A stretch of 64,000 nucleotides of DNA from a virus. The DNA lies in the IMG/VR virus record IMGVR_UViG_3300014152_000001, positions 1-64,000 of that record; one strand, given 5' to 3'. Of the stretch, positions 4,486-62,373 are shown in pieces. Position numbers and translations under genes: made by a program. The stretch's first letter is position 1. Each line of letters starts with the position of its first letter. The notes beneath the pieces were generated by a model, which worked only from the letters and a program-made list of their open reading frames with translations, was not told the origin of the DNA and ran no database searches.

Positions 4486-5830
4486 ATTTAATGGAGTCGA
4501 GATTCATCACCTTTATTTGTTCTACATAAGTCTTAGCCTGCTCGATGACATCATCCACAATCTTCTCCAAGTCGCCCACCATCAGAATCTCCACTGCGGC
4601 CAATCTGGGTAGGTTGTCCACTAGAGCGCAGTTCAAAGCCCCACCCCGAATGTGAGGAAAGGAGTGAGCGTAGTGCGCCTTGAGAAAGGACGAGACCTCT
4701 ATTATCTCACAATCCTCAATCTCTTCAAAAAGACCTCTCTCATATACGGGTGTGTTGCAGAAGTCTCGAACCTTGTGATTGAACCAGAACTTCCTCAGAG
4801 TCAGGGTTATCCTCTCTTCTAAGGCTCGATAGTCGTCAATCAATCCCTTATGCAAGTCGCTGTCGTATCCCATGTCCTGTAGTGGAGCATAGTCTCCATA
4901 GGCCAGAATACCGAACCTTCTTCCCATTGCGTAACTATTTCTACAGAGGAAGCCTAGAATATCTCTAAAGACCGATACATGGGTTCCTTGGAGAGCGAGA
5001 GGATTGGCCGTCACAACGAAGGGACACGCACCTGTCACCGATAGAGTTGTGCCACCGCCAGCCACCGTTGCCCTTCCCGATTCTAAGAATCCTAGCAGGA
5101 ATCCGGCCATGTTTTCCACCGTCTGGCTCTCAATCTGGTCTATCGCAAGCGGATAGTATTGCTCATGGAACAACCCATAAGCCTTATCGTCAGTCCACTT
5201 GGCCGACCCTAGAAGGGTGTTCTTGGTGGCCTTGTCAATCAATCTGCCAGCCAACTCGAAGAAGGTGCTCTTGCCAGTGTTAGGCGGAGTAATCTGTAAT
5301 TCGTGGGGCTGATACCTCATGACATAGCCTCTCGGTAGGGTGGCTCTGTTAGCCAGAACCAGAGCAGGGTCTCTTGTGCAGTTGTATTCCATGATGCCTT
5401 TGATGAGATTGTTATACTCTTCGGTAGGTTTGTCTGCAATAGCATCGAACCACTTGCCCAAAGTAATGTCATTGAACTGATAGTCCGTCCCAAAAACATA
5501 CATCCCCAAGTCATTCCATTCTTCTAGCCTTGGGTCGCCTCTCTGAATCTTGTTCATGATGTAGCCCTGTTCCTTCAATTCAAAGATAACATCTAAATCC
5601 TTAATAGTCATCTCAGTTAGAGGTAGGGCAGACTTCTTGCTATGGATAACGCTTTTAGTATCTACGATGTAGATAGGCGGAGTTATCACTGTTGGGTAAG
5701 CCCGATAGAGTTTGGCTCCTACGGTGATGAGGATTCCATTGTCGGTCTTCTCCATCTCAGACTTCTGATAGACGGGTTCGATTTGCTCAAAAGAATTGAG
5801 CACTTTGTTCTCAGACATTGGTTTCATCAC
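4472..5830 (-). CDS. MCM-like AAA+ ATPase, probable replicative helicase (start likely 5818)
   Basis: PPNTGKST Walker A, LAIDQIE Walker B variant, VVTANP sensor, RRF arginine finger. Confidence 0.7.
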   Translation of the reverse strand: MMKPMSENKVLNSFEQIEPVYQKSEMEKTDNGILITVGAKLYRAYPTVITPPIYIVDTKSVIHSKKSALPLTEMTIKDLDVIFELKEQGYIMNKIQRGDPRLEEWNDLGMYVFGTDYQFNDITLGKWFDAIADKPTEEYNNLIKGIMEYNCTRDPALVLANRATLPRGYVMRYQPHELQITPPNTGKSTFFELAGRLIDKATKNTLLGSAKWTDDKAYGLFHEQYYPLAIDQIESQTVENMAGFLLGFLESGRATVAGGGTTLSVTGACPFVVTANPLALQGTHVSVFRDILGFLCRNSYAMGRRFGILAYGDYAPLQDMGYDSDLHKGLIDDYRALEERITLTLRKFWFNHKVRDFCNTPVYERGLFEEIEDCEIIEVSSFLKAHYAHSFPHIRGGALNCALVDNLPRLAAVEILMVGDLEKIVDDVIEQAKTYVEQIKVMNLDSIKYAIT

Positions 5831-5990
5831 TCTCTATTGGGGCTATTAAGGATTGTGTTCTTGACCTCGCCCTTATCAACTCACGCCAATTGGCAAGGGT
5901 TCTCAGTATTCGCTCATCTTCGGCTGTATCGGGAAAGCCCTGTGTAAGTTCGATTATTCTATTGGCTAAACAGGGATACAGTATCTCCAT
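5811..5990 (-). CDS. 59-aa mini-protein with MCP-like N-terminal segment (not in ORF track)
   Basis: MEILYPCLANRIIELTQ vs MCP 16-30 LFYPALAKRIVELTM; own promoter aatccttattaa on minus strand at ~6013-6024. Confidence 0.75.
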   Translation of the reverse strand: MEILYPCLANRIIELTQGFPDTAEDERILRTLANWRELIRARSRTQSLIAPIESDETNV

Positions 5991-6071
5991 TACCTATCTT
6001 GCGTGAGTAAGGTTAATAAGGATTCTCACTCGTAAGCATTTAAATAGGCCAATTACGCAGGGTATAGTAGC

Positions 6072-6749
6072 ATGGCAGAACCAGAAGGAGAGAAGGAACC
6101 AGTCGAGAAGCCGACAAAAGAGGCACTCGAAGACCTTTATCCAGATGTGGATATGCCCCACCTTCAGGCCGTCATCCAACTTCTTTACCACACGGCCAAC
6201 GAGATTGACGACATTGAGAGCATAGACGCTACTCCCTATGTGACAGTCTATGTAGGTGGCGAAGAGTGGTTCGTTATGAACGACAGCGAGGCTGATGGGT
6301 ATGCTGAAGAGAGTGCAGAAGAGTTGTTTGATGAGATGGAAATGGATGCGTTGCCCGGAGACTGGCCCGACTTCATAATGAACAAAGATGAGTTCGATTC
6401 GGCTTTATCCGAAGCCATTCAAAACTACATTGAGACCGCTAGAGAGGAGCCGTCTAACGACCCTACAACCTACGATAGCAAACTAGACGAGGAGATGGCC
6501 GGAGCCAATACCGCCTCAGAACAGGAGTTCGAGGATTATCTCACTACTCAATGGGTTCCAGACGGAGACGTTATCCAGTGGTTCATCAACGAATATGGTC
6601 ACGAAGCCTTTAAAGAGACGGCCAATGTTGATGCTACAGCCCTCGCCAAGCACATCATGGAAACGGAAGGAAGAGGTTCTATCATCGCATCCCATGATGG
6701 AGAAGAGATTGACCTTGGTAAAGGTTACTACGGCTATCGTCTGAGTTAA
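6072..6749 (+). CDS. Highly acidic protein, possible DNA mimic
   Basis: Very D/E-rich; C-terminal GRGSIIASHDGEE..YYGYRL. Confidence 0.6.
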   Translation: MAEPEGEKEPVEKPTKEALEDLYPDVDMPHLQAVIQLLYHTANEIDDIESIDATPYVTVYVGGEEWFVMNDSEADGYAEESAEELFDEMEMDALPGDWPDFIMNKDEFDSALSEAIQNYIETAREEPSNDPTTYDSKLDEEMAGANTASEQEFEDYLTTQWVPDGDVIQWFINEYGHEAFKETANVDATALAKHIMETEGRGSIIASHDGEEIDLGKGYYGYRLS

Positions 6750-6787
6750 GCCGAGAATCCTTATAAGTCGAGAGTTCCCATTGATGT

Positions 6788-7183
6788 ATGAGAACTTTGA
6801 CCAGAGAAGATAAACTAAAGTATCTCAAGACCTACAGAGAAACGCATAGGAGAGAGCGTTATCTCTACAATCGAGAATACTTCCACAAGTTGAAACTTAC
6901 GGTTCTTACCCATTATTCTGGAACCAATCCACCCCAATGTGCCAATCCTTATGGAGAGCACAAAGAACCATACACTAACATAAAGGCTCTCTCAATAGAC
7001 CATATCAACGGTGGTGGGAATAAGCATAGGAAGACCATTGGTTGGAGTCTCTACTATTGGCTTATTGCCCACAACTATCCCAAAGGCTTTCAGGTGCTTT
7101 GTATGAACTGCCAATTCATCAAGAAGTATGAAGAGGCTTACACAGAATCCTTAAATAGAATAGAGAGGAAGGGTATGATATGA
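6788..7183 (+). CDS. HNH-like endonuclease, paralog 2
   Basis: HYSGTNPPQCANP...SIDHINGGG...YYWL..NYPKGFQVLCMNCQ. Confidence 0.82.
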   Translation: MRTLTREDKLKYLKTYRETHRRERYLYNREYFHKLKLTVLTHYSGTNPPQCANPYGEHKEPYTNIKALSIDHINGGGNKHRKTIGWSLYYWLIAHNYPKGFQVLCMNCQFIKKYEEAYTESLNRIERKGMI

Positions 7184-8694: not shown

Positions 8695-8912
8695 GCAAAG
8701 AAGAGGCATGGTGGAGAAAGTTTCCCAAGGAAACCTACGAGTATCCAGAGGAGGTACTGGAAGGAACCATCGTCATGGAGTATCTGAACTCAAAAGGAGA
8801 AGTTGTGATGAGTCAGCCCTGTTTTGCTTTTGCCAAATGGTCTCGGATTTGGAGTGACATAGACTACAACATCAGAGATGGGATGCTGGCTCTGTTTGGT
8901 GAGAAAGAATGA
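8691..8912 (+). CDS. Hypothetical protein
   Basis: Overlap-coupled ORF in the replication operon. Confidence 0.55.
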   Translation: MSKEEAWWRKFPKETYEYPEEVLEGTIVMEYLNSKGEVVMSQPCFAFAKWSRIWSDIDYNIRDGMLALFGEKE

Positions 8913-9067
8913 AACTAGCCAATCAAGAAGAGTTGAATAAGGCAAGAGGCTCACAGATAAGTGGCTTCGTTTCCTACGATGCACTATATGATATGATTAC
9001 TATTCCAAGTTGTGTCTATGGAATGAGGCCAATTCACGTTTCAAGAGAGGCGATTGAAGATTGGTAG
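8909..9067 (+). CDS. 52-aa mini-protein resembling MCP residues 80-104 (not in ORF track)
   Basis: YDMITIPSCVYGMRPIHVSREAIEDW vs YDSITVTPYKVGMR-VRVTRELIEDQ; overlaps both neighbouring genes. Confidence 0.75.
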   Translation: MKLANQEELNKARGSQISGFVSYDALYDMITIPSCVYGMRPIHVSREAIEDW

Positions 9068-11169
9068 TTCCTTTCGATTCGGCCACCTATACCACACAGA
9101 ATGGTAAGGTCAAGATGAAGGTCTATAGGAATGGAGAGGTCGAACTCATAGACCCTGACCCCATGCCTTATTGCTATGCGCCAGCCAAATACGAAATCCA
9201 GACACAAGCCAAGATGACGAGGACAGATATGAGGACTTTCGATACAGGAGAGAGCGTGAAGAGATACACCTTTCCACAACCTATGAACGTAAAGGCGTTC
9301 CGCACTTGGCAAGAGGGCAAGGGCATTCCCGTCTATGAAGCCGACAAAAAGTATGTGGGAGTTTGGATGGCAGACAACGGGTTCGTATGCGATGACTATC
9401 CCAACCAAGCCTCATGGGACACAGAAGAGGACGACTCCAAGTCCAAGCCCGACCCAGAGACGGCCAACGTTCCGATAACGGCTATAGGCATAGTCTATAA
9501 GGGACAGAAGTATGCGTGGACGGGCATCGAGAAAGAGATTCTTAAGGGAGCAGTAGACTTCATAGCAGAGAACAAGATTACTATGTTGAAGGGATGGAAC
9601 ACCCACTTCTGGGACGTTCCCTTCTTTTCCAAGAGGCTGGCTTACGCAGGCATCAAGTTCGACTTTAGTTCCGTCAGATTCCTAGACCTAGCCCTCTGCT
9701 ATCGTTTCATGGAGAAGAACTTCAGGAGCCAGTGGTCGCTGGAGAAGGTGGGTAGGAGATTGCTCAATGAGCAAAAGCCCTTCGTCAACACTAGACTCAG
9801 CACCCTGCCGCCAGAGCAACTAAAGGAGAGAGTCCTGTGGGATGCGAAAATGACGGAGAAGATAGACGCTAAGAAGGGATATACCGGAGTGGCCATACAA
9901 CTGGCCAAGCAGGGTCATATCTTTCCAGACCAGATATTTGGAATCCATCCCATCAAGAAATCCATCACCATCACCCCCGTCCTAGACCAATACTTCTTGA
10001 AGTATGCCCACAAGATTAACTATGTCTTGCCTTGCAAGTCGGGATATAAGCAGAGGCCCAAATATACAGGAGCATGGGTCGAAGTCTTCGAGCAGGGGTT
10101 CTTTGAAGATGTGCTACAGTTCGATGTGGACTCCCTGTATCCCAACATCATCCTAGCGTATAAGTTGGCCCCGTTGGGTAGGTTCGACTTGGTTGAACCC
10201 ATCGTCAGAGACCTGCTTGCTGGCAAGAGGAACGCCAAAGACGAGGTAGAGAGATGGGCATATAAGATTACCGTCAATGCCTTATACGGTCTCTTCGCCA
10301 GTTCCTATTACCGATTCAAGGCCGTAGAAGTGGCAGACAGTATAACCTATCACGGCAGAGACATAGTTACCCATACAGCAGAGTTTCTAAGAAGTATGGG
10401 TTATACGGTCTACTACATAGATACGGACTCCTGCTTCGTGAAGGGCAAATTCGGTGAAGCAGAGACCATAAGAGACATGATGAACTCTTATGTGGCCAAG
10501 ACATACAATGTAGATAACATCAAATTCGGGATGGAGAACCATTGGAGTCTGCTCGGATTCCCAAGGGGGGCCAAGGGCGAGAAGACCAAGAAGCGTTACT
10601 ATGGTATAGTCCATGTCAACAAGAAAGGTGAAGTGGTGGACAAGTTTGAAGAGGCTGGCATGGAAGGCTTGCGTGGGGATTGGTGTGAGTTGGCGAGGAA
10701 CGTGCAAGACACCATAAAGAGGTTCCAAGTCACCAAAGTCCCGAAGGAGAAGATGGTGGAGTTCTATGAGGATACAAAAGTCAGACTCTACAAGGGACTT
10801 TACGACCCCCTTCTGGTCATGGAGAAACATATGGGGAAGGATGTCTCAGAGTATGGTCAGATGAAGAAGGACGAGAAGACGGGAAAGATGCGGAAGATGC
10901 CTACCCCACAACACGTTAAGGCTTTACGAGATGCGATGGAACATGGGTGGGTTCCCAGTGATATGGTCCAATATGGTGTGGTCCAATACTATATGTGCAG
11001 AGGAGCCATACCCAAACTGGTCAATCTAGTAAGGCTGGGTGAGATAGACTATGCTTGGTATTGCTCCCATCAGATAGACCCCATAGTTTGGCGATTGGGA
11101 ATAATCGAACAGATGAGCAAATATAAGAAGGAGAAGGTTATAGCGGAAGACCAGTCTACCTTAGACTAA
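9061..11169 (+). CDS. polB: Family B DNA polymerase
   Basis: Exo motifs WDTEE and GWN..FWD.PF; DVDSLYPNI, KITVNALYG, YIDTDS. Confidence 0.96.
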   Translation: MVVPFDSATYTTQNGKVKMKVYRNGEVELIDPDPMPYCYAPAKYEIQTQAKMTRTDMRTFDTGESVKRYTFPQPMNVKAFRTWQEGKGIPVYEADKKYVGVWMADNGFVCDDYPNQASWDTEEDDSKSKPDPETANVPITAIGIVYKGQKYAWTGIEKEILKGAVDFIAENKITMLKGWNTHFWDVPFFSKRLAYAGIKFDFSSVRFLDLALCYRFMEKNFRSQWSLEKVGRRLLNEQKPFVNTRLSTLPPEQLKERVLWDAKMTEKIDAKKGYTGVAIQLAKQGHIFPDQIFGIHPIKKSITITPVLDQYFLKYAHKINYVLPCKSGYKQRPKYTGAWVEVFEQGFFEDVLQFDVDSLYPNIILAYKLAPLGRFDLVEPIVRDLLAGKRNAKDEVERWAYKITVNALYGLFASSYYRFKAVEVADSITYHGRDIVTHTAEFLRSMGYTVYYIDTDSCFVKGKFGEAETIRDMMNSYVAKTYNVDNIKFGMENHWSLLGFPRGAKGEKTKKRYYGIVHVNKKGEVVDKFEEAGMEGLRGDWCELARNVQDTIKRFQVTKVPKEKMVEFYEDTKVRLYKGLYDPLLVMEKHMGKDVSEYGQMKKDEKTGKMRKMPTPQHVKALRDAMEHGWVPSDMVQYGVVQYYMCRGAIPKLVNLVRLGEIDYAWYCSHQIDPIVWRLGIIEQMSKYKKEKVIAEDQSTLD

Positions 11170-11560
11170 ATATTCGTTTTTTCCATTGACAATTCCAACA
11201 CAAGTCTTGGAATCCAGAGGGAAAGTTATTTCTCTTGAGCCAAAGATAGAATGAACTACCATATCCAATCGTTTTACGTTCTTTTGTTCCACCATCATTG
11301 ATGTGGTCTACAGTAAGACAATCTATATCGGTAAGCATGGGGTCATTAGGTAAATGCAAATGAAAAGGGTCTGCACAAACTGGATATGGCTTAGTAGAGT
11401 AATGTGTAAGGACTTCAACTTTCAGGTCGTGCCTCTCTTTCCGAGTTTTGAGATTGGCTTCCTTCTTATGCTTACTATACCATGTTTTGAAATATCCTCT
11501 CCATTTGCTTCTATTTTTCTCATAGTAATCCTTATGATAGTTAGAATCCATAGAAGTCAC
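11156..11560 (-). CDS. HNH-like endonuclease, paralog 3
   Basis: TVDHINDGG...FYLWLKRNNFPSGFQDLCWNCQ. Confidence 0.82.
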   Translation of the reverse strand: MTSMDSNYHKDYYEKNRSKWRGYFKTWYSKHKKEANLKTRKERHDLKVEVLTHYSTKPYPVCADPFHLHLPNDPMLTDIDCLTVDHINDGGTKERKTIGYGSSFYLWLKRNNFPSGFQDLCWNCQWKKRIFSLR

Positions 11561-25938: not shown

Positions 25939-26373
25939 TCATAAATACTGATTATGAAGTTCTGTGTTCTTGAAACGTTTTACAAATTGACAATTCATGC
26001 AAAGCACCTGATAGCCAGTTGGATAGTTATTGGCTCGAAGCCATGTGTAGAATGCCCATCCCCCATGTTTATTTAACTTGCTTCTCTCTTTACCACCTTT
26101 TCCATTAATATGGTCTATCGAGAGAGCCAGAATGTTTGTATAGGGCTTTTCGTGCTCACCGAATGGGTTGACACATTGGGGTGGGTCTGTGCCAGAATAG
26201 TAGGAAAAGACATCATGTTTCAACTTACTCTTAGACCGCACAACTGCTTCTCTATTGTAGAGCCTAACCTTGGCTCGATTGGTAGAATAGTATTCTCTTT
26301 CCTTTAGCCTTATTTCTTCTCTATGCTTTACACGATAGCGTCTATTACGTTCTAACTTCTTAGCGTCATTCAT
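25939..26373 (-). CDS. HNH-like endonuclease, paralog 4
   Basis: YSGTDPPQCVNPFGEH...SIDHING...YQVLCMNCQ. Confidence 0.82.
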   Translation of the reverse strand: MNDAKKLERNRRYRVKHREEIRLKEREYYSTNRAKVRLYNREAVVRSKSKLKHDVFSYYSGTDPPQCVNPFGEHEKPYTNILALSIDHINGKGGKERSKLNKHGGWAFYTWLRANNYPTGYQVLCMNCQFVKRFKNTELHNQYL

Positions 26374-26390
26374 TATTCTATAAAGGAATG

Positions 26391-26416
26391 AGGGACTATT
26401 TAAACCTTTATATAGG
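26391..26416. promoter_or_regulatory. Back-to-back divergent TATA boxes (HNH4 / terminase)
   Basis: gggactatttaaacctttatatagg; each box lies ~25 nt from its start codon. Confidence 0.7.
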
Positions 26417-26441
26417 ATTATCCCAATAATACATTGGTGAT

Positions 26442-28001
26442 GTGTCCATAAGCACCGTCAATGAACGACTCCTCAAGACCATAGAGACTGAGTTCGGTCA
26501 AATCAAGGACATCCAACCAAAGAACGTAACGTTAGACCTTAGTGACCCCGTTACCTTCGTTGAGAAGTATGTAGCCATCCCAGACAAGGCTCCACCCGAA
26601 CAGACGACTTGGTTCGAGAAGCGGCCTTGGCTCCCAGAACTCTACCGAGATGAAAGCAAACGTATCATCATAGTGAAAGGAAGACAGATGGAAGTCTCCG
26701 AGTATGCTGTCAATATGCTCTTCTACTGGGGTCTCAAATGGCCGGGAAAGTATATCTACGCCTCATCTTCGGGTGAGAAGGCAGACAACTTCAGCCATGA
26801 CCGTTTCCAAAAGCAACTGCTCCGAAGCCCCACCCTTCAAGCCCTTGTAAGTGGGCAAGCGGTCAGAAGGATTGTCTATGGCAATTCCCAACTCTACTTC
26901 ATGACAGGTTATGAGGACACCAAGACCTTGAGAAGCATTGACGCTGATGGCATCATCCTTGACGAGTTCCAAGACTATAGAGCCAATGCCGTCCCTATCG
27001 CAGAAGAGGGCATCCAACACAGTGCTCTGAAGAGGTTGTGGGTAATCGGAACACCTCTACTGACCGGAACCAACTTCTCCAACCTATGGGACAACAGCAC
27101 AAAGAAAGAATGGAAAACAGACAAACAAATATGGGAAGTGGGCAATCCTGAGTCTGATAAGGCGTGGTCTGGATACCACATCAGTCAAGATTTCGCTGTG
27201 AATGTCTGGATTACACCAGAAGACATGGAATACAGACGCAAAAAGAAGCCACGACAGGAGTTCATGAACGAAGTCTTAGGACTGTTCTATGCAGGTCTTG
27301 GTAGACCAACCGACTACGGTTACATGAGAACCCTCTTCAGTCCAACCTTGTCAAAGGGGCAGTTTGCAACAAACGACTTGCTACTGGCTGGTGTGGATTG
27401 GGGTGTCTCTAAGGCCAACACCGTCTTCTACGTCATCCGCCCCAGACTCTTGGAGTTGCCAGACATCTACACTCTCGACACCATCTACATAGAGAAGGTA
27501 GAAGACCCCGACCTCACCAAACAAATTGACAGAGTAGAGACCTTACTCAAGACTTTTCCCATAAGACTGGCCATGTTAGATTATGGTTCGGGCTTTGTCC
27601 AGAATCAGACTCTCTTTAAGAAGTTCGGCAATCGTGTGATGCAAGTGGAGTTGGGCAGTGGCAAAGCAGGTCAACCCATCACCATCGAGAACACTGCCTT
27701 TGGCAACTTTGTGAAGGTGAACAGAACATGGGCCATTGATACGGCTATGGATTTCGTCACCAAACCGGAGAGGTTCAGATTCTACAATGAAGTAGACGAA
27801 GGGACGCGAGATTGGATTATCAGCGACTTCCTAGCGGAGTATCCAGAGAACAGCACAACCACAGGCAAGAAGATATGGGTTCACAACCCCGATACTACAG
27901 ATGACGTTCTCATGGCCTTTGTCAACGCTGTAATAGGCTTTAATCTCCAGAAGAGAACCACAGTCTCAGGAGACGCATCAGATTGGATTAGTTTCGTTTG
28001 A
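26442..28001 (+). CDS. terL: Terminase large subunit
   Basis: VKGRQMEVSE Walker A, IILDEFQD Walker B, IGTP, GVDWG nuclease motif, DD.LMA. Confidence 0.92.
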   Translation: MSISTVNERLLKTIETEFGQIKDIQPKNVTLDLSDPVTFVEKYVAIPDKAPPEQTTWFEKRPWLPELYRDESKRIIIVKGRQMEVSEYAVNMLFYWGLKWPGKYIYASSSGEKADNFSHDRFQKQLLRSPTLQALVSGQAVRRIVYGNSQLYFMTGYEDTKTLRSIDADGIILDEFQDYRANAVPIAEEGIQHSALKRLWVIGTPLLTGTNFSNLWDNSTKKEWKTDKQIWEVGNPESDKAWSGYHISQDFAVNVWITPEDMEYRRKKKPRQEFMNEVLGLFYAGLGRPTDYGYMRTLFSPTLSKGQFATNDLLLAGVDWGVSKANTVFYVIRPRLLELPDIYTLDTIYIEKVEDPDLTKQIDRVETLLKTFPIRLAMLDYGSGFVQNQTLFKKFGNRVMQVELGSGKAGQPITIENTAFGNFVKVNRTWAIDTAMDFVTKPERFRFYNEVDEGTRDWIISDFLAEYPENSTTTGKKIWVHNPDTTDDVLMAFVNAVIGFNLQKRTTVSGDASDWISFV

Positions 28002-35889: not shown

Positions 35890-35942
35890 TAACAATTAGA
35901 ATCATGGTAAACCTTATATAGTCAAGTAACCATTACTTCCAT

Positions 35943-36332
35943 GTGTCAGCACAAAAGAGATACTACCAAAATCACAAAACCGCAATGCTACAGAAGAGTA
36001 AAGACTACTATTGGAGCCACAAACCAAAAATACAAAGGGAACAAAAAGAGTATCGGGAGCAAGTTCGTATACAAGTTTTTACTCATTATGGCGGCAATCC
36101 ACCCAAATGCGCTTGTTGTGGGGAGAGCAGAATCGAGTTTCTCACTATAGACCACATCAACAACGATGGTGCAAATCAACGGAGACGTATATGGGGCCAG
36201 AAAGTATCTGGTTTTGGATTCTATGCGTGGTTAGTTAGAATGAACTTTCCTGAAGGCTATCAAGTTTTATGTTTCAACTGCAACTGTGGCAGAGCACATA
36301 CTTTAAATAAGGTATGCCCTCATAAACAGTAG
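35943..36332 (+). CDS. HNH-like endonuclease, paralog 6
   Basis: CACCGE..IEFLTIDHINNDG...YQVLCFNCN..CPH. Confidence 0.82.
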   Translation: MSAQKRYYQNHKTAMLQKSKDYYWSHKPKIQREQKEYREQVRIQVFTHYGGNPPKCACCGESRIEFLTIDHINNDGANQRRRIWGQKVSGFGFYAWLVRMNFPEGYQVLCFNCNCGRAHTLNKVCPHKQ

Positions 36333-36333
36333 A

Positions 36334-36399
36334 ATGGTCACGCGAGAACAGGTTCCTATCGTCAATACAGGAGCATTATTCTATCCCGGAGTAGGTTGA
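36334..36399 (+). CDS. 21-aa micropeptide copying the MCP N-terminus (not in ORF track)
   Basis: MVTREQVPIVNTGALFYPGVG vs MCP MAMTREQFPIVNTGALFYPAL; tttaaata at 36302-36309. Confidence 0.8.
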   Translation: MVTREQVPIVNTGALFYPGVG

Positions 36400-36866
36400 G
36401 ATTTACGCTTTCGTAAGGCTTCTTTCTTGAATTGACAATTCATACATAACACTTGGTATCCTTCTGGGTATCCTCTAACAAAGAGCCACCAATAGATGTT
36501 AATACCACCCCAATTCTTGGTCTTAGCCACTAATCTTCGCTCCTTTGCTCCATCATCATTGATATGGTCTATCGTAAGACAATCTACATCTGTAAACGGT
36601 TCTTTGTGCATTCCAAAAGGATTGGCACATTGAGACGGGTTAGTGCCAGAGTAATGAATCAACGTCTTAACTTTCATCTGATATTTGGCCTTCTTCCGAT
36701 TTGCGTTATACTTCTTTCTATGTTTTCTATAATATCCTCGTTCTCTATTATTTTTTGCAGACTGTTTTTTGTCGCACTCTTTACAGACCCGACTGTTGAT
36801 TCGCTTATGACATGGATACCAATTTTCATCGGCTAACAATATTCCACAGACACGGCAATTGGTCAT
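36381..36866 (-). CDS. HNH-like endonuclease, paralog 7
   Basis: N-terminal CRVC..CKEC; TIDHINDDG...YQVLCMNCQ. Confidence 0.82.
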   Translation of the reverse strand: MTNCRVCGILLADENWYPCHKRINSRVCKECDKKQSAKNNRERGYYRKHRKKYNANRKKAKYQMKVKTLIHYSGTNPSQCANPFGMHKEPFTDVDCLTIDHINDDGAKERRLVAKTKNWGGINIYWWLFVRGYPEGYQVLCMNCQFKKEALRKRKSQPTPG

Positions 36867-36901: not shown

Positions 36902-37210
36902 TTATTGGAGAAGTTGGAGGTCGGAAACATCCAAAACGGCTGTCGCAAATTTCTTGAAATAGGGAGACATAACAATATCGCCCATCAAACCAAAGCGTTC
37001 TCCAAGTTCTCCTATTAAGACTAAGACATCTTCTTCGCTCACTATCTCATCTCCGCAATAGATAGCCAATGGTTCTTGGGTCTCTTTGCAAAATACAAAC
37101 TGATAATCATTTACCCTAGCGATGTGCTTAGTGTGTTTGCAGTCTTCGTGCCCCCCTTCAAATAGTAAAACATAATGGCCATCACTGGCTCTCGCTCCGG
37201 TGAGTTGCAT
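36902..37210 (-). CDS. Hypothetical protein with weak MCP-like segments
   Basis: QLTGAR, DGHYVL and D.......IVMSP segments; divergent promoter shared with 37274. Confidence 0.5.
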   Translation of the reverse strand: MQLTGARASDGHYVLLFEGGHEDCKHTKHIARVNDYQFVFCKETQEPLAIYCGDEIVSEEDVLVLIGELGERFGLMGDIVMSPYFKKFATAVLDVSDLQLLQ

Positions 37211-37273: not shown

Positions 37274-37636
37274 ATGGTATACAATGAAGAAATCAATCAC
37301 GAATGGGGCACTGAGGTCTATCCGTTAGTCCTCAAGCCAACGATGAAAGACCTTACGACAAGCAAAGGTAAGGTTTGGATAAACACTGAGAAAGAACGAG
37401 TAGAGGAATGGCAAGGAAAGCCGTGGGTCGTTGAAAAGAGCGACATCGCAGACCGTCTTGCCCAGAAGACAGGCATCAAGTCAAAGGGCACTCACTTCAA
37501 GATGAACATAGGCCAGAAGAAGGTGGGCCTGAGTGAGTTACTGGTCATCCGAGCCAGAGAAGACAGCCTAAACGACTTCACCAAGAAAGTCGAACTGATG
37601 GCCATCTCTCTCAAGAGTGGCAGAAGCCGAAAGTAA
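37274..37636 (+). CDS. Diverged truncated homolog of the MCP N-terminal third
   Basis: Colinear blocks LVLKPTMKDL....G and KVGL(x9)EDSL vs MCP LALKPLLQDF....G and KVGM(x9)EDQI. Confidence 0.65.
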   Translation: MVYNEEINHEWGTEVYPLVLKPTMKDLTTSKGKVWINTEKERVEEWQGKPWVVEKSDIADRLAQKTGIKSKGTHFKMNIGQKKVGLSELLVIRAREDSLNDFTKKVELMAISLKSGRSRK

Positions 37637-38428: not shown

Positions 38429-38857
38429 ATGGAATACAAAACTTCTGAAGAGAAGAGAGCCTACCAAGCAGACTACGCCAAAACACATAAGGAAGAGAAA
38501 CAGGCTTACGATAGGAAGTATTGGAAAATCCGTTATGCTAAAAATAGCAAGCAATACTTGGAAAACAGAGCGAAAGCGACAAGAGAACGGAAACTACTTG
38601 TCCTAAGTCATTACAGTAGTAATCCGCCCAAGTGTGCTTGTCCACCTTGCGGAGAGACCATTATCGAATTTCTCTCAATAGACCATATTATCCCTATTGG
38701 TAATAAAGCGAGAGACAATCAACTAGGCACGCGACACGGAAGCAATCTCTACGGCTGGCTCATTAGACACAACTTTCCAGAGGGCTTCCAAGTGCTCTGT
38801 ATGAATTGCAACTTCGCCAAAGGACACTACGATAAATGTCCTCACGAGAGACTGTAG
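38429..38857 (+). CDS. HNH-like endonuclease, paralog 8
   Basis: SIDHIIP...YGWL..HNFPEGFQVLCMNCN..CPH. Confidence 0.82.
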   Translation: MEYKTSEEKRAYQADYAKTHKEEKQAYDRKYWKIRYAKNSKQYLENRAKATRERKLLVLSHYSSNPPKCACPPCGETIIEFLSIDHIIPIGNKARDNQLGTRHGSNLYGWLIRHNFPEGFQVLCMNCNFAKGHYDKCPHERL

Positions 38858-38979: not shown

Positions 38980-41325
38980 ATGAGCAGTGATGGTGCTAGA
39001 CGACCTGAAGAGGCTTTCGGCAAGACGACTCCATATGCCACCTGTCCAATCTGCCACGCCTTCATGCTAACTGAAGAGTATGACAAACACATGGCTCAAA
39101 ATCACTCACAAGAACAACGAAACAAATATACCCCAAAAGATGAAGAGAGTGGACCACAGGGCCACTTCTATGGTGATGTCTGGTCGAAGTATGAGGCCAC
39201 ACAAAGTCCGGCTTATCAACTCACCCAAGACGAGTTGGACAAGATTACTAATGAAGCGTGGGAAGGAGAAGGTTGTGAAGATTGTCGAAGCATAATTCAA
39301 AGCACCGAGATGGATAAGAAGGGCAACTATGCCATCTATCCTACATCAAGTCAAGTCGGACACATGAGCGACCTCTTCGGATACCAAACCGAGCCATCCA
39401 TGCCTACCACTGGTTATCTAGACCCAGAAGACCCCAAATGGCAACAGTCGGTTGAGCACATCCAAGAGCGACAGAAGACCCCGAAAGGGGTAGGAACCTT
39501 TGGGCCACAGTCTGGAATGACGAGAGACGAACCCACTCGTGATGAATGGCAAGTGACCAGTTATCTAGACAGCGTTGGTGTGACCTATATCCATAAGATG
39601 AAGTTAGGAGAACTAGACTCTACAACAGAGAAGCCAAAGGTTGAGTATGACCTCTATCTTCCAGACCTAGTTATGGCCATCGAAACCTCACCGGGTTGGC
39701 ATGAGGGTGGGCCACAAGCAGGAAGATTTCCACAAGTAATTGAGAATGACCACTTCAAAAAGAACTTTGCTGAAGAGCATGGAATAGACTTGGTGAGTTT
39801 CGACCCTGCTCAGGGAACGGAAAAGTTTATCAACGAAACCCTAGTGCCCAAGTTGAGGGCTGTGGGTGTGAATGCCTTTGAAGTGCCTACAACAAAGAAC
39901 GAAGAAAAGGAGAGGCTGGTATGGTGTATGGATTGTGGTGGTCTCTTTGATGACAAACCATCTCTGAACACACACTTCCAACAGACTGGACATAGTTCCG
40001 TAGGCGAAGGGACGGTAGAGAAGTATGAAGAGTTTGAGAAGGGCAATCCCTTCAATCAGCAATACATCTACCGAGAAGAAGACACGCTCCCAACATCTTG
40101 GCTTGCTCCGGTCTTCAAGTATGAGGGCTATGGGAAGGGCGAAGAGGAAGGTGGTGGAAGATTCCCAGACCCCGCTAACCATATAATGGGACCGGGAGTT
40201 GAGGTCAAGAAATGTCCTCATGGTAATGGTGTCTTCGCTACTCGTGACTTCAAAGAAGGAGAACTAATTTCAAGTTTCAAATCCCCATTTGTAAAGGAAC
40301 TTCCCGACCCTGCTCGTGGATGGGCCACTCTAAGAGTGGGAGACCTGTGGTGGGAAGAGCCAGCATCAGGAGAAGAGGACGAATGGGCCAACTTCTTAGA
40401 CCATGAGAAGTCGCCTAACTCTGTCTTTGTCAACTTCAACTTTGATGAAGGGACGGGAGACCTTATGACGACCCGACCTATCAAAACAGGAGAGGAAGTC
40501 TACATCGATTACGGTGCATACTCACCAGAGAACATAGGCGATGTCAGCGAAGACTTCGCCCCAGAAGACCTACCCCCAGAAGTTGTTCCTGCGGTCCCAG
40601 AGACGACAACTCTACCACCCACAGAGCCAGAAAAGGACTTAGGACAGGAAACAGCAGGATACGATTGGGATTACAACGTGAAGTATCGAGAAAAGCCTAT
40701 TCTTGAAGAGCAGTCTGGAATCAACCAGAATATTCCGACTGGAATATATTCCAGAGTGGAACCTCTTGCCTTTGACCAGTCCCAAAACGTGCCCAGATAC
40801 CCAGAGCGTGGGAAGGTCAATACCATAGAACAAGAGAGTGGTGGTGAAGAGTTGGCGGCTGATAGTCACCTGTTCCAAGAACAAGAGGAAGGTGGAGTCT
40901 ACCTAGCCTGTCCGAAATGCACTGGCGGTGGCGGCTTCTACAATAGGAGAGGCGATAAATGGATTACCTGCCCAATGTGTGGTGGAACGGGTAGCGGAGA
41001 GAAGCAGTTCGATTGGCCTGAAGACGAGAGAGACACCAAAAACGAGGGACGATGGGACGCACCAACACCAGACAAACAGAATGAAGCCGAGAAGATGGCC
41101 TACTATCAGTTGGCTGACGAAACAGGAGACTACATAATGAAAGCAAGAGAAGACGGCTCTCTCACAACACCAGAAGCCGATGCTCTAATGGCTCTACAAA
41201 CTCAAGCCAAAGAAGCAGTATTAGTAGACAATCTGGAGAAGGCACAAGAAATACTGGCTAAAATGGCAGAACTTGTTACGACTAAACTGGGAGTTCAAGA
41301 CCTAGACGTTGAAGGACAGCAGTGA
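38980..41325 (+). CDS. Multidomain protein: C2H2 ZnF, PD-(D/E)XK (Vsr/DUF559-like) nuclease, SET domain, DnaJ-type Zn finger
   Basis: YDLYLPD...AIE..GWH; GNGVFATRDFKEGE...ANFLDH..SPN...TRPIKTGEEVYIDYG; CPKC.G.G..CPMCGGTG. Confidence 0.8.
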   Translation: MSSDGARRPEEAFGKTTPYATCPICHAFMLTEEYDKHMAQNHSQEQRNKYTPKDEESGPQGHFYGDVWSKYEATQSPAYQLTQDELDKITNEAWEGEGCEDCRSIIQSTEMDKKGNYAIYPTSSQVGHMSDLFGYQTEPSMPTTGYLDPEDPKWQQSVEHIQERQKTPKGVGTFGPQSGMTRDEPTRDEWQVTSYLDSVGVTYIHKMKLGELDSTTEKPKVEYDLYLPDLVMAIETSPGWHEGGPQAGRFPQVIENDHFKKNFAEEHGIDLVSFDPAQGTEKFINETLVPKLRAVGVNAFEVPTTKNEEKERLVWCMDCGGLFDDKPSLNTHFQQTGHSSVGEGTVEKYEEFEKGNPFNQQYIYREEDTLPTSWLAPVFKYEGYGKGEEEGGGRFPDPANHIMGPGVEVKKCPHGNGVFATRDFKEGELISSFKSPFVKELPDPARGWATLRVGDLWWEEPASGEEDEWANFLDHEKSPNSVFVNFNFDEGTGDLMTTRPIKTGEEVYIDYGAYSPENIGDVSEDFAPEDLPPEVVPAVPETTTLPPTEPEKDLGQETAGYDWDYNVKYREKPILEEQSGINQNIPTGIYSRVEPLAFDQSQNVPRYPERGKVNTIEQESGGEELAADSHLFQEQEEGGVYLACPKCTGGGGFYNRRGDKWITCPMCGGTGSGEKQFDWPEDERDTKNEGRWDAPTPDKQNEAEKMAYYQLADETGDYIMKAREDGSLTTPEADALMALQTQAKEAVLVDNLEKAQEILAKMAELVTTKLGVQDLDVEGQQ

Positions 41326-42531: not shown

Positions 42532-42833
42532 CACTTCAACCCCAGATTGCGTTTAATACCCGCGATATAGACATCCAACAGAGAAGAGAAGACATTAGTG
42601 AAGGCATAGACCTCATTAGTGAAGGCATAGACCTCATTCAACTCTTTATGTGACCAGAACTCGCACTCAGATTTATGGGCTATTGGAAAGAGATACCGCA
42701 AAAGAGTGGCGAGGGCTGGCCTTGGAATATACATTGTTTCCGTGTAAGTAGGGAGCATGATTTTGTCCTTCTCAAAGTCTCCTGTCTCAAGGTCTTTGAC
42801 GATTGCATCAATACACTTTTGGCAGAGTTTCAT
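42531..42833 (-). CDS. Hypothetical protein with internal 21-bp tandem duplication
   Basis: NEVYAFT x2; cattagtgaaggcatagacct repeated at 42593-42634. Confidence 0.6.
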   Translation of the reverse strand: MKLCQKCIDAIVKDLETGDFEKDKIMLPTYTETMYIPRPALATLLRYLFPIAHKSECEFWSHKELNEVYAFTNEVYAFTNVFSSLLDVYIAGIKRNLGLK

Positions 42834-43519
42834 TTTTCCTCATCCTCTTCCTCCTTCTCCGGCATCTTAGTCTCAAAGTCCTCAATAGTGAGGGGTGTTT
42901 TAGTCATGGCATCAAATATCTCCTCATCTGCCTTTATCTTCTCAGAGTGAAGCAAGATAGACCTAGCCAAGAGATAGAAGACCGTGGCTATGGCCTTTGC
43001 GCCAGTGTTGTTGGCCGGAATGCAGAGGTCCAAATCCTCGAAAGTGGCGTTGGTGTTGCAGATGGCAATAACGGGGATACCAACGCTTCCGGCCTCTTGC
43101 ATGGCCCTTCGGTCTCCTTTTATGGCTTCTCCTATCTTCTTCGGTATGCCATTGGTAGGGTCGGAGACAATCAACACATTTGCATCAATGTAGTATTTCG
43201 ATTGAGAGTTTGTAAGACAACCCGGCATGAAGCGATGAAAGACGGTGGGTATGAGAGTGGCCTTCTCAAATGCCGTAAGAGCGTTCTCAAATCTCGCATC
43301 AGTGGCATAGAGCACAGCACCTTCGGTCTTGACTATGAACTTACCAGCCGTGTCAAGCCGAGTAAGGATGGCGTTCACATCCAAAATGGGATTGCCACTT
43401 GGAGCGATGCTAGAGACATACTGAGCCATGTCTTTAGTAACTGCTCCCTTAATGCCTAAGTGTATACCAGTGGCCTTTAGTGGCTCTTCTGTAAGGGTTT
43501 TAGGTAGGATATGACTCAT
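42830..43519 (-). CDS. rps2: Ribosomal protein uS2 homolog (archaeal type, divergent)
   Basis: GIHLG, TKDM..YV, ILDV, RFMPGCLTN, VSDP..D..A..EA...GIPVIAICNT, DLCIPANNTG.KAI..VFYLLAR.IL, IEDFETK. Confidence 0.9.
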   Translation of the reverse strand: MSHILPKTLTEEPLKATGIHLGIKGAVTKDMAQYVSSIAPSGNPILDVNAILTRLDTAGKFIVKTEGAVLYATDARFENALTAFEKATLIPTVFHRFMPGCLTNSQSKYYIDANVLIVSDPTNGIPKKIGEAIKGDRRAMQEAGSVGIPVIAICNTNATFEDLDLCIPANNTGAKAIATVFYLLARSILLHSEKIKADEEIFDAMTKTPLTIEDFETKMPEKEEEDEEK

Positions 43520-44745
43520 TGTTTGCTTACCCCTACACATCTAACCAACTCGTCCAGTATGGCCTCTACATCGTTGGTGTGAGTCTTAGCACTGCCAGCA
43601 GGTTTCAATCCACCCCCTTCCATGATGGCAGGATTGGCACTTCTGAAGGCCTTGCCAATGTGGATTGTGCTGTCCCTTCCGCCCCTACCAGAGACATGAA
43701 CCCCATACTTAGGAATGGTGTTAATGACGAACCAAGTCTTATGGTTGGTGTTGGTAAACTTACTGCATAGTGCAGAACCCATGTTCCATTTGCTACTGAT
43801 GATGGTCACACCGAAGTCTGGGTAGTCTAGTTGGGTGTAGTTGCCCCGCTTCTCTACATCTCCCTTGTCCTTTCTGTAGTTCACAGTGAGTTCCAGAAGC
43901 ATCTTAGTGTTGGAGTTCTTTGGTGTTGGAGTGGTCGTTGGAAATACAGTCGGCTCCCAGAAGAGGTCGCCCTCAATCTTTTCCTTGTTGACCATCGCAT
44001 AGAAGTCTAGCCAATTAGGAATCTTCTCCATCTCTTTCATGGCTTCATAGCAGATGGGCGGGGCTTTGTTGAATATCATCCTTCGAGGATTGTGAAGCAA
44101 TTGGGCGTAGAATGCAAGAATGCTCCAATCGTAACTACTGTTCAGACTCTTGGAAGCAAGCAATCCCCGCATAGAAGGATGCTTGTTGAGGAGTTCTTGG
44201 AAGAGAGGGCCACCTTCTTTGGTCCCAGTTGCTACATCTCCTTCTAACCCTAGCAAGGCCCACTTCTCCATGTTGACTACCGACCATCCCATCCTCTTGG
44301 CAAATGCGTAAGAGATGCCAGTAGTGCAATTCTCGGTGGATGACTCATAGTAGAAGAAGGGGAGATTGGGGAAAGGAAACTTCCCTTGGAGATTGGCTAA
44401 AGTCTTTGCATACTCTCCATAGGCTTCTGCGGTTTCAACCAAAAGGTCTGGCGGGTGGTTGTCCAAGATGATGACATTGATGCCACTGGCCAAAAATGCT
44501 ACTGCATAGTTCAGCATCTCTTGACCGCTTCCAAGGTCTAGAATGAAGACCGTTGCTGGCTTCAAGTCCATTATGTCTGAGACATTCTTATCCGTCATCC
44601 CGAAGACATCCCAATCTTGCCACATAATAGTGTGGGTAGCCTTGGGAGCATTCAGGGAGATGGCATTATGGATGATGCGACAGGCGCACATCCCATCGGT
44701 ATCTTCATCGCTGAAGATTACGGTATCCTGATTTGCTTTACTCAT
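43516..44745 (-). CDS. DHH-family phosphoesterase (RecJ/GAN-like)
   Basis: DEDTDG, ILDLG, LDNHPP, GD, SGR, GGG...AG. Confidence 0.8.
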   Translation of the reverse strand: MSKANQDTVIFSDEDTDGMCACRIIHNAISLNAPKATHTIMWQDWDVFGMTDKNVSDIMDLKPATVFILDLGSGQEMLNYAVAFLASGINVIILDNHPPDLLVETAEAYGEYAKTLANLQGKFPFPNLPFFYYESSTENCTTGISYAFAKRMGWSVVNMEKWALLGLEGDVATGTKEGGPLFQELLNKHPSMRGLLASKSLNSSYDWSILAFYAQLLHNPRRMIFNKAPPICYEAMKEMEKIPNWLDFYAMVNKEKIEGDLFWEPTVFPTTTPTPKNSNTKMLLELTVNYRKDKGDVEKRGNYTQLDYPDFGVTIISSKWNMGSALCSKFTNTNHKTWFVINTIPKYGVHVSGRGGRDSTIHIGKAFRSANPAIMEGGGLKPAGSAKTHTNDVEAILDELVRCVGVSKQ

Positions 44746-49322: not shown

Positions 49323-49397
49323 ATGGCACGCCTCCCCTATATGCGAGCCGTCATCTCTTTGGGTTCTTCGGAAAAGAAGAACCTTAGAAAGGTCTGA
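49323..49397 (+). CDS. 24-aa micro-ORF, candidate MCP 194-208 mimic
   Basis: MARLPYMRAVISLGS vs LSRIPQFAALLFYGQ; gaatccttaataa promoter. Confidence 0.45.
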   Translation: MARLPYMRAVISLGSSEKKNLRKV

Positions 49398-54732: not shown

Positions 54733-54733
54733 A

Positions 54734-60237: not shown

Positions 60238-60276
60238 TCTAAGATATAATGGGCAGTAGGAGTATTTAAGTATGTT

Positions 60277-60323
60277 GAAAAATCGTGGGAAGAGGAGTGG
60301 TCCAGTAAAGGCGACCACGCCTC
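60277..60323 (-). terminator. Hairpin plus T-tract after the MCP gene
   Basis: gagg-c-gtggtc / gaccac-t-cctc stem then ttttt on the minus strand. Confidence 0.55.
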
Positions 60324-60373
60324 AACTTTGTCAGTTAACCGTGCTTAGAGGTTCGATATTGGCTTTCCGGTGA

Positions 60374-61324
60374 CTACAATGACCTTAGACCTGTTAATTG
60401 CACGACACTCTCCGGGTATGTGATAACCGGGGCATAGCGAGCAGTGATAACAATGTCTATCGAATCGAAAGTAGGTTGAGGCCAGACATCCACACTGATG
60501 GGTCTCTTCGTTGCGAAGTAACCCAACGGTGCATATGAGGCTGAATAGTTGCTACCAGCCGCGGCAAGGACGTATGCGCGTCCATCGAAGCCGCTGTTTG
60601 GTAACAGTGGAGCCTGTGGGATGTTCGGGGTGACTATCTGCTTCAGTCCATACAACTGAGGTGCTGAAACCACTGTTCCAGTTCCCTGAGCGTATACGGG
60701 CTGTCCGTAGAAGAGTAGGGCGGCAAACTGAGGTATCCTTGACAGGTCTTGATGAGCCATTGGGTTCATCGCAATCGTGTCAGGTTCCAAAGCAAGGTTC
60801 TGTATCACTTGCTTCGCCTGAGTTATGTCGTTAATCCCTATTGTTCCACCATACGCAGTTGTCGTCCCATCCATGAACACTGAAGCCCCTGTAACGGGCT
60901 GTGCGATGCCGTGACCAGCCGGGGCATTGAGTGCTTTCTCAACGTCTTGGTCGATGGTCATAACGACCCGTCTCGCGGCTCGTTTCAGTTGGTCTTCTAC
61001 AATGTTCACTATTTGGTCTTCAATCAACTCTCTAGTGACTCGGACTCTCATACCCACCTTGTAAGGTGTAACGGTAATCGAGTCGTAAGGTGTGAAGTCA
61101 GCCATAATCTCGGCTCCCTCTGCCGTCTTTCCTATGACGGCTGTAGCACGAGCACCCTTCTGCTTCGGTATCGAAGCAGTCGCTCCAACCTTGATGAAGA
61201 AGTCCTGAAGTAGAGGCTTCAATGCCAAGTTAGGCATTGTGAGTTCTACTATCCTCTTCGCCAGTGCTGGATAGAATAGAGCACCTGTGTTAACTATTGG
61301 GAACTGTTCACGAGTCATAGCCAT
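60374..61324 (-). CDS. Major capsid protein (HK97-fold)
   Basis: AEGAEI, K.G....VTRELIED, I..NDI..A...I, IAMNP, LYGL..IVTP.IP; follows protease/scaffold/cement genes. Confidence 0.9.
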   Translation of the reverse strand: MAMTREQFPIVNTGALFYPALAKRIVELTMPNLALKPLLQDFFIKVGATASIPKQKGARATAVIGKTAEGAEIMADFTPYDSITVTPYKVGMRVRVTRELIEDQIVNIVEDQLKRAARRVVMTIDQDVEKALNAPAGHGIAQPVTGASVFMDGTTTAYGGTIGINDITQAKQVIQNLALEPDTIAMNPMAHQDLSRIPQFAALLFYGQPVYAQGTGTVVSAPQLYGLKQIVTPNIPQAPLLPNSGFDGRAYVLAAAGSNYSASYAPLGYFATKRPISVDVWPQPTFDSIDIVITARYAPVITYPESVVQLTGLRSL

Positions 61325-61339
61325 TCTCTTTCACCTGTT

Positions 61340-61771
61340 TTAGAACAGAAGTGCTACGATAGGCAAAGGCGTGGCAACATATGTGCCGCCCTGCAATGCG
61401 ATAAGTCTAGTTGGCCCTGCTATGGGTGCAACATAACCATCGGTGGTTGCAGAAACGTCAAGATACTGACCAGCCGTGACAGTAGCATCGCAAAGCACAG
61501 TTACCTCACCACGACAAATGACATCAATTGCCGCGTTGAGTTGACCAGAGGTTTGGGCAATTCCAAGTAGGAATCCGCCTGTTACCGTTGCGGCCACAAC
61601 TTCACAAGTGAAGTCTGCCGTAGTAGCCAACGTAACCAATGCTCCAATGTATATTGCTGTCCCGTTTACATTTGCTATCGCATTGAAAGAGAGAAGGAAT
61701 GAATCATTGTGGAAGGGTGCGCCTTCAAGAGTTCCGGGGAGCGAACTGCCGTGTGGAATTGGGATAGCCAT
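61340..61771 (-). CDS. Capsid cement/decoration protein (DUF2190-like)
   Basis: GA.V.L, LGIA, V..RG.V.V.....V.AG..L. Confidence 0.7.
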   Translation of the reverse strand: MAIPIPHGSSLPGTLEGAPFHNDSFLLSFNAIANVNGTAIYIGALVTLATTADFTCEVVAATVTGGFLLGIAQTSGQLNAAIDVICRGEVTVLCDATVTAGQYLDVSATTDGYVAPIAGPTRLIALQGGTYVATPLPIVALLF

Positions 61772-61784
61772 TTTCTATCTCACT

Positions 61785-62300
61785 TTAACCCGACAGTAGA
61801 CCCAGTTCCTTGAAGCGGCTTGAAGCACCTGTAATCTCCTTCCAGTAGTCTGGGAACTCCGCAGAGGCACCAAAGCCAGCGAGTGGACTCGTCTCTTCCT
61901 TGACCGCCCCAACGTTACCCTTTCCGGTAACTTCGGGAGCCTTGGCAGACGCTTCCCTTGCTTTCTTGGCTTCCTCTACCTTGCTCTTGACTTCCTGAAG
62001 TCTCGACTTCAGTTCTTCAAGTTTCTTGCGCTTAACTTCCTCTTCTTCCTTCTTTTTCTTTTGGGCTTCCTCGTTTTCCTCGCTCTTTGCTTCAGATGCT
62101 CTCCTCAAGGCAATCCTCTGAGACAGCAACGCGGCTCTTTTACCGCGAAGGTCTTGCTGTTCCAGTTTTATGTTGACTTCCTTGATGATGGACATCAGAC
62201 CATCGAGTTTGGATTCGAGAGAACCCATCTGCTTCACAATTTGGTCATAACTGAGAGCCTTGCCCTCAGATATATCACCAGAAGGTGCGACAGTAGACAT
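61785..62300 (-). CDS. Scaffolding protein
   Basis: Charged coiled coil between protease and capsid genes. Confidence 0.7.
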   Translation of the reverse strand: MSTVAPSGDISEGKALSYDQIVKQMGSLESKLDGLMSIIKEVNIKLEQQDLRGKRAALLSQRIALRRASEAKSEENEEAQKKKKEEEEVKRKKLEELKSRLQEVKSKVEEAKKAREASAKAPEVTGKGNVGAVKEETSPLAGFGASAEFPDYWKEITGASSRFKELGLLSG

Positions 62301-62301
62301 T

Positions 62302-62373
62302 TTAGTTAGTTTTTTCTGGGTAGTATAGCATCGCCTTAGCCATCAACACTACCATAAAAGTTGAAGGAGTCAT
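62302..62373 (-). CDS. 23-aa leader ORF of the capsid operon
   Basis: MTPSTFMVVLMAKAMLYYPEKTN; ATG 25 nt after tttaaata; stop 1 nt before the scaffold ATG. Confidence 0.5.
   Translation of the reverse strand: MTPSTFMVVLMAKAMLYYPEKTN

Follow-up and report, generated by a model that had tools for sequence, protein, structure and literature searches.

A conserved micro-gene paralogous to the N-terminus of the major capsid protein, and an HNH cassette inserted in it, in a group of tailed viruses from peat

The internal proteins of phage T4 carry an N-terminal capsid-targeting peptide of ~10-20 residues that directs them to the prohead and is removed by the prohead protease, and a short stretch of T4 gp23, the Gol peptide, is sensed by the Lit protease. 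Here we describe a micro-gene of 21 codons (36334-36399, plus strand) that is paralogous to residues 1-21 of the major capsid protein (MCP) of the same virus. It lies in the first 64 kb (64,000 nucleotides, hereafter the window) of IMG/VR record IMGVR_UViG_3300014152_000001, a complete virus record of 105,748 bp with direct terminal repeats. The relatives of this virus are a group of ~105-kb tailed viruses recovered from peat metagenomes. Like Gol, which is biologically active alone, the micro-gene corresponds to a short MCP stretch. However, Gol is an internal MCP segment that has no separate gene and triggers host defence, whereas the micro-gene is conserved as a gene. The targeting peptides of the T4 internal proteins differ in that they carry a cargo protein, and the micro-gene carries none.

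In staphylococcal phage 80alpha the Prp protease reads a short N-terminal motif that the capsid and scaffolding proteins share with ribosomal protein L27 (PMC5744158). Here too the N-terminal sequence of the MCP is repeated on another gene product, which in 80alpha is read by one common partner. However, the 80alpha motif sits on full-size proteins and its partner is a host protease, whereas here the second carrier is the motif alone, at 19-36 residues. Mimics of capsid or scaffold are also encoded by satellites, as in CpmB of SaPI1 and Ccm of SaPIbov5 (PMC8569155, PMC5744158). These resemble the micro-gene in copying a capsid or scaffold interface of the helper; they compete at the contact between the MCP N-arm and the scaffold, and change assembly. 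They are full domains encoded by parasites of the phage, in contrast to a 21-residue self-copy that is encoded and conserved by the virus itself.

The locus has a second aspect, an HNH homing-endonuclease gene, for which the Seg and Mob genes of T-even phages, free-standing endonucleases that undergo intronless homing, provide the comparison (PMC2988022, PMC2790892). In both cases an endonuclease gene is found between phage genes or inside one, occupies a given site in some relatives but not in others, and takes flanking DNA along when it moves by gene conversion. The insertion in the window differs in that it interrupts a 60-nt micro-gene and that the cassette appears to bring a recoded full copy and a promoter-like box. 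The nearest known concepts are shared N-terminal processing or targeting motifs and satellite mimics of capsid or scaffold, and the endonuclease part is a variant of intronless homing. We found no description of a capsid-N-terminus micro-gene in the open-access papers searched. Taken as a whole, the explanation that we consider probable is that of a conserved micro-gene, a free copy of the MCP N-terminus that would tune assembly or processing, invaded by an HNH cassette with a recoded copy.

A single capsid-derived micro-gene in the window

The MCP is an HK97-type protein of 316 aa encoded on the minus strand at 60374-61324. It matches the Pfam families Phage_capsid_4 (42 bits, cut-off 27) and Phage_capsid (37.2 bits, cut-off 24.2) and the PHROG major head protein (E = 9e-15). 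An original prediction, made from the letters of the window, held that seven short open reading frames (ORFs) reproduce different segments of this protein; the coordinates and translations of all seven, and of the MCP gene, are as it gave them. The likenesses were calibrated in four ways. The MCP was compared by tblastn with the window, its own gene masked, using 150 shuffled MCPs as the control; 19 other real proteins of the window served as queries, and their best off-target matches were recorded; a profile of 17 related MCPs was run against 14,331 six-frame segments from three complete genomes; and each ORF was scored by Smith-Waterman against 1000 shuffles.

The ORF at 36334-36399 survives all of these controls. 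Its likeness extends over MCP residues 3-21 with 15 of 16 core residues identical, its tblastn match (36337-36393) scores 35.8 bits, a value reached by none of the 150 shuffled MCPs, and the profile detects it with E = 4.5e-4 (14,331 segments). The next tblastn matches score 25.0, 23.9, 23.9 and 23.1 bits, compared with a mean of 24.4 bits for the best match of a shuffled MCP, and the off-target best matches of the 19 other proteins are routinely 24-32 bits. Two ORFs that had been put forward as strong cases fall to background: 5811-5990 has 9 of 14 residues identical but scores 23.9 bits with a profile E-value of 1.9, and 8909-9067 has 13 of 25 identical but scores 25.0 bits with a profile E-value of 4.4. 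The scores of the remaining four (37274-37636, 62302-62373, 49323-49397 and 36902-37210) were reached by 135 to 478 of 1000 shuffles and are attributed to chance. The shuffled-MCP control proposed with the original prediction thus gives equally good matches for six of the seven fragments. With one candidate in seven passing, the tiled set of MCP-fragment peptides is not sustained, and the window holds one genuine capsid-derived micro-gene. Likenesses of 10-25 residues spotted by eye over 64 kb are mostly background. Across the three complete genomes the only significant matches to the 17-MCP profile are the MCP genes, a second MCP paralog in one genome (G001) and the micro-genes, and a motif profile finds no further copies in them. 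Each of these genomes has exactly one MCP N-terminus and one micro-gene.

The claim that this ORF mostly uses different codons from the MCP was borne out, with 10 of the identical residues recoded. It is identical to the resident MCP gene at 36 of 48 nucleotides, the same range as for the MCPs of other viruses. The micro-gene has none of the domains of the HK97 fold (A and P domains, E-loop); it ends after 21 codons, with nothing MCP-like beyond, and is a fragment paralog, no capsid protein. It is an ancient partial paralog of the first ~20 MCP codons.

The micro-gene ORF lies directly 3' of the ortholog of a tail-terminator-like gene in G001, G002, L136/L150, L138/L146 and L153. G001 and G002 are complete genomes of ~105 kb whose MCPs are 85% and 83% identical to that of the window, and they have neither of the two HNH genes found at this locus in the window. 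Orthologs are located at L138:3459-3518, L136:3465-3527, L108:1950-2030, L109:1291-1401 (minus strand) and L153:1833-1934. The predicted start is the ORF's own ATG, overlapping or abutting the upstream stop codon: an ATGA stop/start overlap with the tail-terminator gene in G001, G002, L136 and L138, and a 1-nt spacer in L153 and the window. The synteny establishes the micro-gene as a resident gene directly after the tail-terminator-like gene in this group of relatives.

In the window the tail-terminator-like gene (35428-35889, plus strand) encodes 153 aa. The top Foldseek matches of its product are all neck or terminator chains, among them T4 gp15, lambda gpU and T5 p142 (E ~2e-4, TM 0.4-0.55, from a weak model with pLDDT 61), and Atlas also indicates a tail terminator, while no match was found in Pfam, PHROG or NCBIfam. 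Frameshifting from the tail-terminator gene into the micro-gene, to give a fused product, was rejected as a possibility, since the peptide frame of G002 and L153 is open only 3-6 codons before the ATG and the cassette splits the two genes in the window.

Six sequence variants of the micro-gene, 19-36 residues long, all have a start codon, R-E near the N-terminus and G-A-[LI]-F-[YI]-P. Two blocks are kept, M-x-T-R-E and G-A-L-F-Y-P, with a linker of 0-9 residues between them and a free C-terminal tail. The invariant positions (M, R, E, G, A, F and P) are, with one exception, also the invariant positions of MCP residues 3-19, and M, R-E and G-A-x-F-x-P are invariant in the MCP and the micro-gene alike, an N-terminal motif common to two predicted products of the virus. 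The MCP N-terminus itself is nearly invariant and colinear among 17 relatives. The three variants with extra residues between the blocks (G001, G002 and L153) have no counterpart among these 17 MCP N-termini, and the micro-genes therefore evolved in place rather than being repeatedly re-copied from MCP genes. Scanning viral contigs for the motif G-A-L-F-Y-P-A returned only MCP genes, the micro-genes of G001 and G002, and chance matches in unrelated contigs; a degenerate scan of viral contigs for a valine-type peptide gave no match.

Between the window and L138, all 17 ungapped codons of the micro-gene can be compared. They contain 16 nucleotide differences, 13 of them synonymous (pS 0.97, pN 0.08; binomial P = 6.5e-6), and the two further pairs without gaps have P = 0.003 and 0.005. 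Over the conserved blocks pN/pS is 0.07-0.6 in 15 of 15 pairs; these blocks were picked for being conserved, and the 17-codon test is the cleaner one. Judged by these substitutions, the micro-gene is under purifying selection. The original prediction had named decay in relatives as the sign of recombination debris, and none is seen: the relatives keep an intact ORF at the same place and under purifying selection. The pattern supports the assignment of 36334-36399 as a selected micropeptide gene.

An HNH cassette inserted in the micro-gene

In the window the micro-gene is separated from the tail-terminator-like gene by foreign DNA. The first 10 nt of the ancestral micro-gene remain at 35886-35895 (plus strand), where they overlap the tail-terminator stop and form the left junction of a mobile cassette (35896-36333, plus strand). 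In the HNH-free relatives (G001, G002, L136, L138 and L153) the same 10 nt run on into the micro-gene. The cassette carries an HNH homing-endonuclease gene (35943-36332) that matches the PHROG HNH endonuclease family with E = 3.4e-5 and is a stand-alone ORF outside any intron or intein; the ATG of the window's micro-gene lies 1 nt past its stop. Comparison of the occupied and empty sites shows that the cassette was inserted 10 nt into the ancestral micro-gene. At first sight the micro-gene could be taken for cargo of the homing endonuclease, a view overturned by the HNH-free relatives that carry it.

The junction and the HNH gene recur in three metagenome contigs (L147-L149), next to a tail-terminator gene of the G001 type. 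Between the window and L148, identity of ~75% in the adjoining gene jumps to 100% at 35894 and stays there up to the end of the contig, which corresponds to position 36350 of the window. The end of the contig falls 17 nt into the window's micro-gene, and a TATA box, TTTAAATA (36302-36309, plus strand), 24 nt before the micro-gene ATG and inside the 3' end of the HNH gene, is part of the identical stretch. Synonymous sites of the micro-gene are saturated between the window and its closest relative, although the flanking gene is 89.5% identical. Because the identity with L148 reaches 17 nt into the micro-gene and because of the saturation at synonymous sites, we infer that a complete copy of the micro-gene, recoded at synonymous positions, and its TATA box came with the cassette. 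The HNH gene at 35943-36332 is free-standing, is present or absent at one precise site, and is identical in viruses whose surrounding sequence has diverged, the change in identity being abrupt. Free-standing endonucleases of phages are known to home and, in doing so, to co-convert the DNA next to them (PMC2790892, PMC2988022).

A second HNH-family gene (36381-36866, minus strand) is convergent with the micro-gene and has landed just past the conserved core of the latter; its final 19 nt and the variable 3' tail of the micro-gene overlap. G001, G002 and L136 lack it at this position, and a different HNH gene, on the plus strand, occupies the same spot in G006. The space 3' of the micro-gene is a second landing site. 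Both insertions spare the 18-codon core of the micro-gene. The endonuclease may target the micro-gene because of its constrained sequence, and recoding would then likely protect the invaded allele from re-cleavage; the recoded first codons are only suggestive of an occupied allele that resists cleavage.

Eight HNH paralogs with a shared motif occur in the window (946-1494, 6785-7180, 11159-11560, 25942-26457, 35005-35415, 35943-36332, 36381-36866 and 38429-38857). Relatives lack several of them at the corresponding places but have others, one example in L010 lying between the genes for protease and scaffold.

The rejected reading frames and the genome setting

The other ORFs of the original prediction lie outside the feature described here. 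The ORF at 5811-5990 (minus strand) encodes 59 aa, is lineage-specific, and has a background-level likeness to MCP residues 16-29. It is missing at the syntenic place in the three relatives compared (G006, G001 and G002). It sits in a stretch of ~200 nt (5818-6022) that is lacking in G006, the closest relative, and in whose place G001 has a cysteine-rich ORF of 83 aa that is unrelated to it. The stretch is a variable slot 5' of a conserved 452-aa gene.

The 52-aa ORF at 8909-9067 (plus strand) precedes the DNA polymerase gene; it is present in G006 and absent in G001, and its likeness to MCP residues 80-103 is at background level. A motif I-H/R-V-S/T-R-E-x-I-E, preceded by I/V-T-I/V, is common to this ORF, a 154-aa ORF of G001 (G001:89233-89697, minus strand) and MCP residues 80-103, and in three genomes it is confined to those sequences and the MCPs. 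A real relation among the three was considered and is unproven, with all pairwise E-values 0.1 or worse.

The ORF at 62302-62373 (minus strand) is a leaderless upstream ORF of 22-25 codons before the scaffold gene, with a TATA box at 62400-62407 (minus strand), 26 nt 5' of the start codon, and its stop codon adjoins the start of the scaffold gene. Nine related loci have such an ORF in the equivalent position. Its placement and length are conserved, its sequence is conserved only loosely and its MCP-like residues are not, which would fit a starter ORF that couples translation of the head operon.

The prediction had also given most of the seven ORFs either a TATA box of their own or overlap coupling to neighbours. 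The TATA box held for 36334 (24 nt before the ATG) and for 62373, and the octamer concerned is enriched 12-fold throughout the window: TTTAAATA occurs 20 times compared with 1.7 expected, mostly 22-26 nt 5' of start codons (for example at 6039, 28007, 32855, 36302 and 37644). We interpret it as a putative archaeal-type promoter of leaderless transcripts. The window also encodes a ribosomal protein uS2 of archaeal/eukaryal type (42830-43540, minus strand; TIGR01012, E = 1e-38, below the curated cut-off). The pattern of the octamer and the viral uS2 point to an archaeal host with leaderless transcripts. Genome contigs searched with the tail-terminator alignment and with the MCP alignment yielded no relatives, and no provirus or host genome. 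The gene for the large terminase subunit is located at 26442-28001. A 781-aa protein encoded at 38980-41325 (plus strand) has a homing-endonuclease-like region (residues 186-288) and a SET methyltransferase domain (residues 415-512).

Possible role of the micro-gene peptide

The head module of the virus lies on the minus strand and consists of a protease-like gene, a scaffold gene, a 143-aa gene and the MCP gene. The prohead-protease-like protein (62423-63703, minus strand) has C-terminal zinc ribbons, and its residues 74-134 match the PHROG family 'major head and protease protein' (E = 1.9e-4). The scaffolding protein (61785-62300, minus strand) is a coiled coil with a conserved C-terminal motif. 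It is a candidate partner of the MCP N-terminal region, as the protease-like protein is of the MCP N-terminus. Alignments of the MCP with the family profiles begin only at about residue 14-18, and therefore the copied segment is presumably N-terminal to the canonical mature fold. In other tailed phages (80alpha, phi29 and SPP1) the N-terminal region of the MCP is the scaffold contact in the procapsid, and it re-docks onto neighbouring subunits at maturation (PMC5744158, PMC11922011, PMC6813328). G001 encodes a second MCP paralog of 299 aa (G001:87524-88423, minus strand, within L128), which is not present in the genome of the window. Its N-terminus consists of the scaffold C-terminal motif and a linker, and the MCP sequence takes over at the A-L-F-Y-P position. 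This natural fusion is a hint that the two elements meet.

The peptide and the MCP N-terminus are constrained at the same residues, and therefore the peptide most likely binds a partner of that MCP segment during head assembly or maturation. The free peptide would occupy the same site as the N-terminal segment, for which the candidates are the prohead protease, the interface of scaffold and N-arm, and the groove of a neighbouring subunit, and as a free copy of the MCP N-terminus it would tune assembly or processing. We give a role of the peptide in head assembly or maturation a little less than an even chance, and favour it over a host-directed decoy, which we regard as unlikely. A more specific version, offered tentatively, is that the peptide is a 'self-mimic' that the virus would use in stoichiometric amounts, as a regulator or a component, when heads assemble or mature; it might, for example, time the prohead protease or fill binding sites of the N-terminal segment. 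It would also be important enough to serve endonucleases as a safe landing site, and they would need a recoded spare copy.

Several observations weigh against this interpretation. The micro-gene belongs to the tail/neck module and is 24 kb away from the genes of the head, not an obvious setting for a role in head assembly. It is dispensable at least in L151 (Ga0187874_10004210, about 2440-2470), where the tail-terminator gene is 70% identical, the micro-gene is absent and the convergent downstream gene is directly next. The sample comprises six sequence variants, all from related peat samples. The structure model of the MCP (pLDDT 33) is too poor for placing its N-terminal residues 1-21. As for the cassette, the arrival of the window's copy with it rests on 17 nt of shared sequence and the saturation at synonymous sites, and the right-hand end was not found, an exact-match scan of viral contigs for the right junction giving no match.

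Among other explanations, the peptide could be real but directed at a host factor, for instance by blocking a sensor or protease that recognizes the MCP N-terminus. Capsid proteins trigger several defence systems, and retention of exactly the residues that are invariant in the MCP is equally expected if a host protein reads the segment. However, the gene is at the end of a late structural operon, which suggests expression too late for a decoy to be of most use, no neighbouring gene was recognized as defence-related, and the searches of genome contigs provide no provirus or host genome to set it against. That the seven ORFs form a dispersed tiled set whose MCP-fragment peptides act jointly as decoys of capsid-sensing defences, or as dominant-negative inhibitors, is hardly credible. 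The alignments of 5811-5990 and 8909-9067 do exist and each beats shuffles of its own ORF; both ORFs look expressible, one having a TATA-like box and the other being overlap-coupled, and an ORF of G001 has a motif like that of 8909-9067. Once the search of the whole window is corrected for, however, six of the seven candidates are at or below background, 5811-5990 is missing from three relatives, the MCP-like residues of 62302-62373 are not kept, and the motif profile finds no more copies in the three complete genomes.

The 21-aa ORF might instead have no function and be left over from an HNH cassette that formerly lay at the 5' end of the MCP gene of a related virus and came here with that flank as its 'rescue' end. 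Its location between two HNH genes would fit, as would codons that differ from those of the resident MCP as a foreign MCP's would, and HNH genes do occur inside the head module of relatives. We nevertheless think this highly unlikely, as relatives free of HNH genes have the ORF at the same position and coupled to the tail-terminator gene, the differences among orthologs are mostly synonymous, the linker variants are unlike any MCP, and the cassette junction falls inside the micro-gene itself. Conservation of the ORF for some other reason, as a terminal coupling ORF, an RNA element or simply an endonuclease recognition site, has if anything a smaller chance of being correct. It is true that the ORF is very short and always abuts the upstream stop codon, and that short coupled ORFs occur elsewhere in this virus group, such as the one upstream of the scaffold gene. 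However, that ORF keeps its position but not its sequence, whereas in the micro-gene the amino acids are kept and the nucleotides are poorly conserved, a pattern contrary to that expected of an RNA or DNA element, and there is no same-strand gene downstream to couple to.

If a peptide that acts on head assembly is indeed encoded here, it would provide a tiny and genetically separate handle on what the N-terminal segment of the MCP binds, and when. The locus is also a clean natural example of a homing endonuclease invading a constrained micro-gene with what appears to be a recoded replacement, which bears on how such nucleases persist without harm to their carrier. Should the 'self-mimic' version be true, the peptide would represent a new class of micropeptide encoded by viruses, and the cassette a naturally occurring mobile element that mends the gene it disrupts. 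More generally, archaeal-type viruses can have conserved genes among ORFs much shorter than annotation cut-offs allow.

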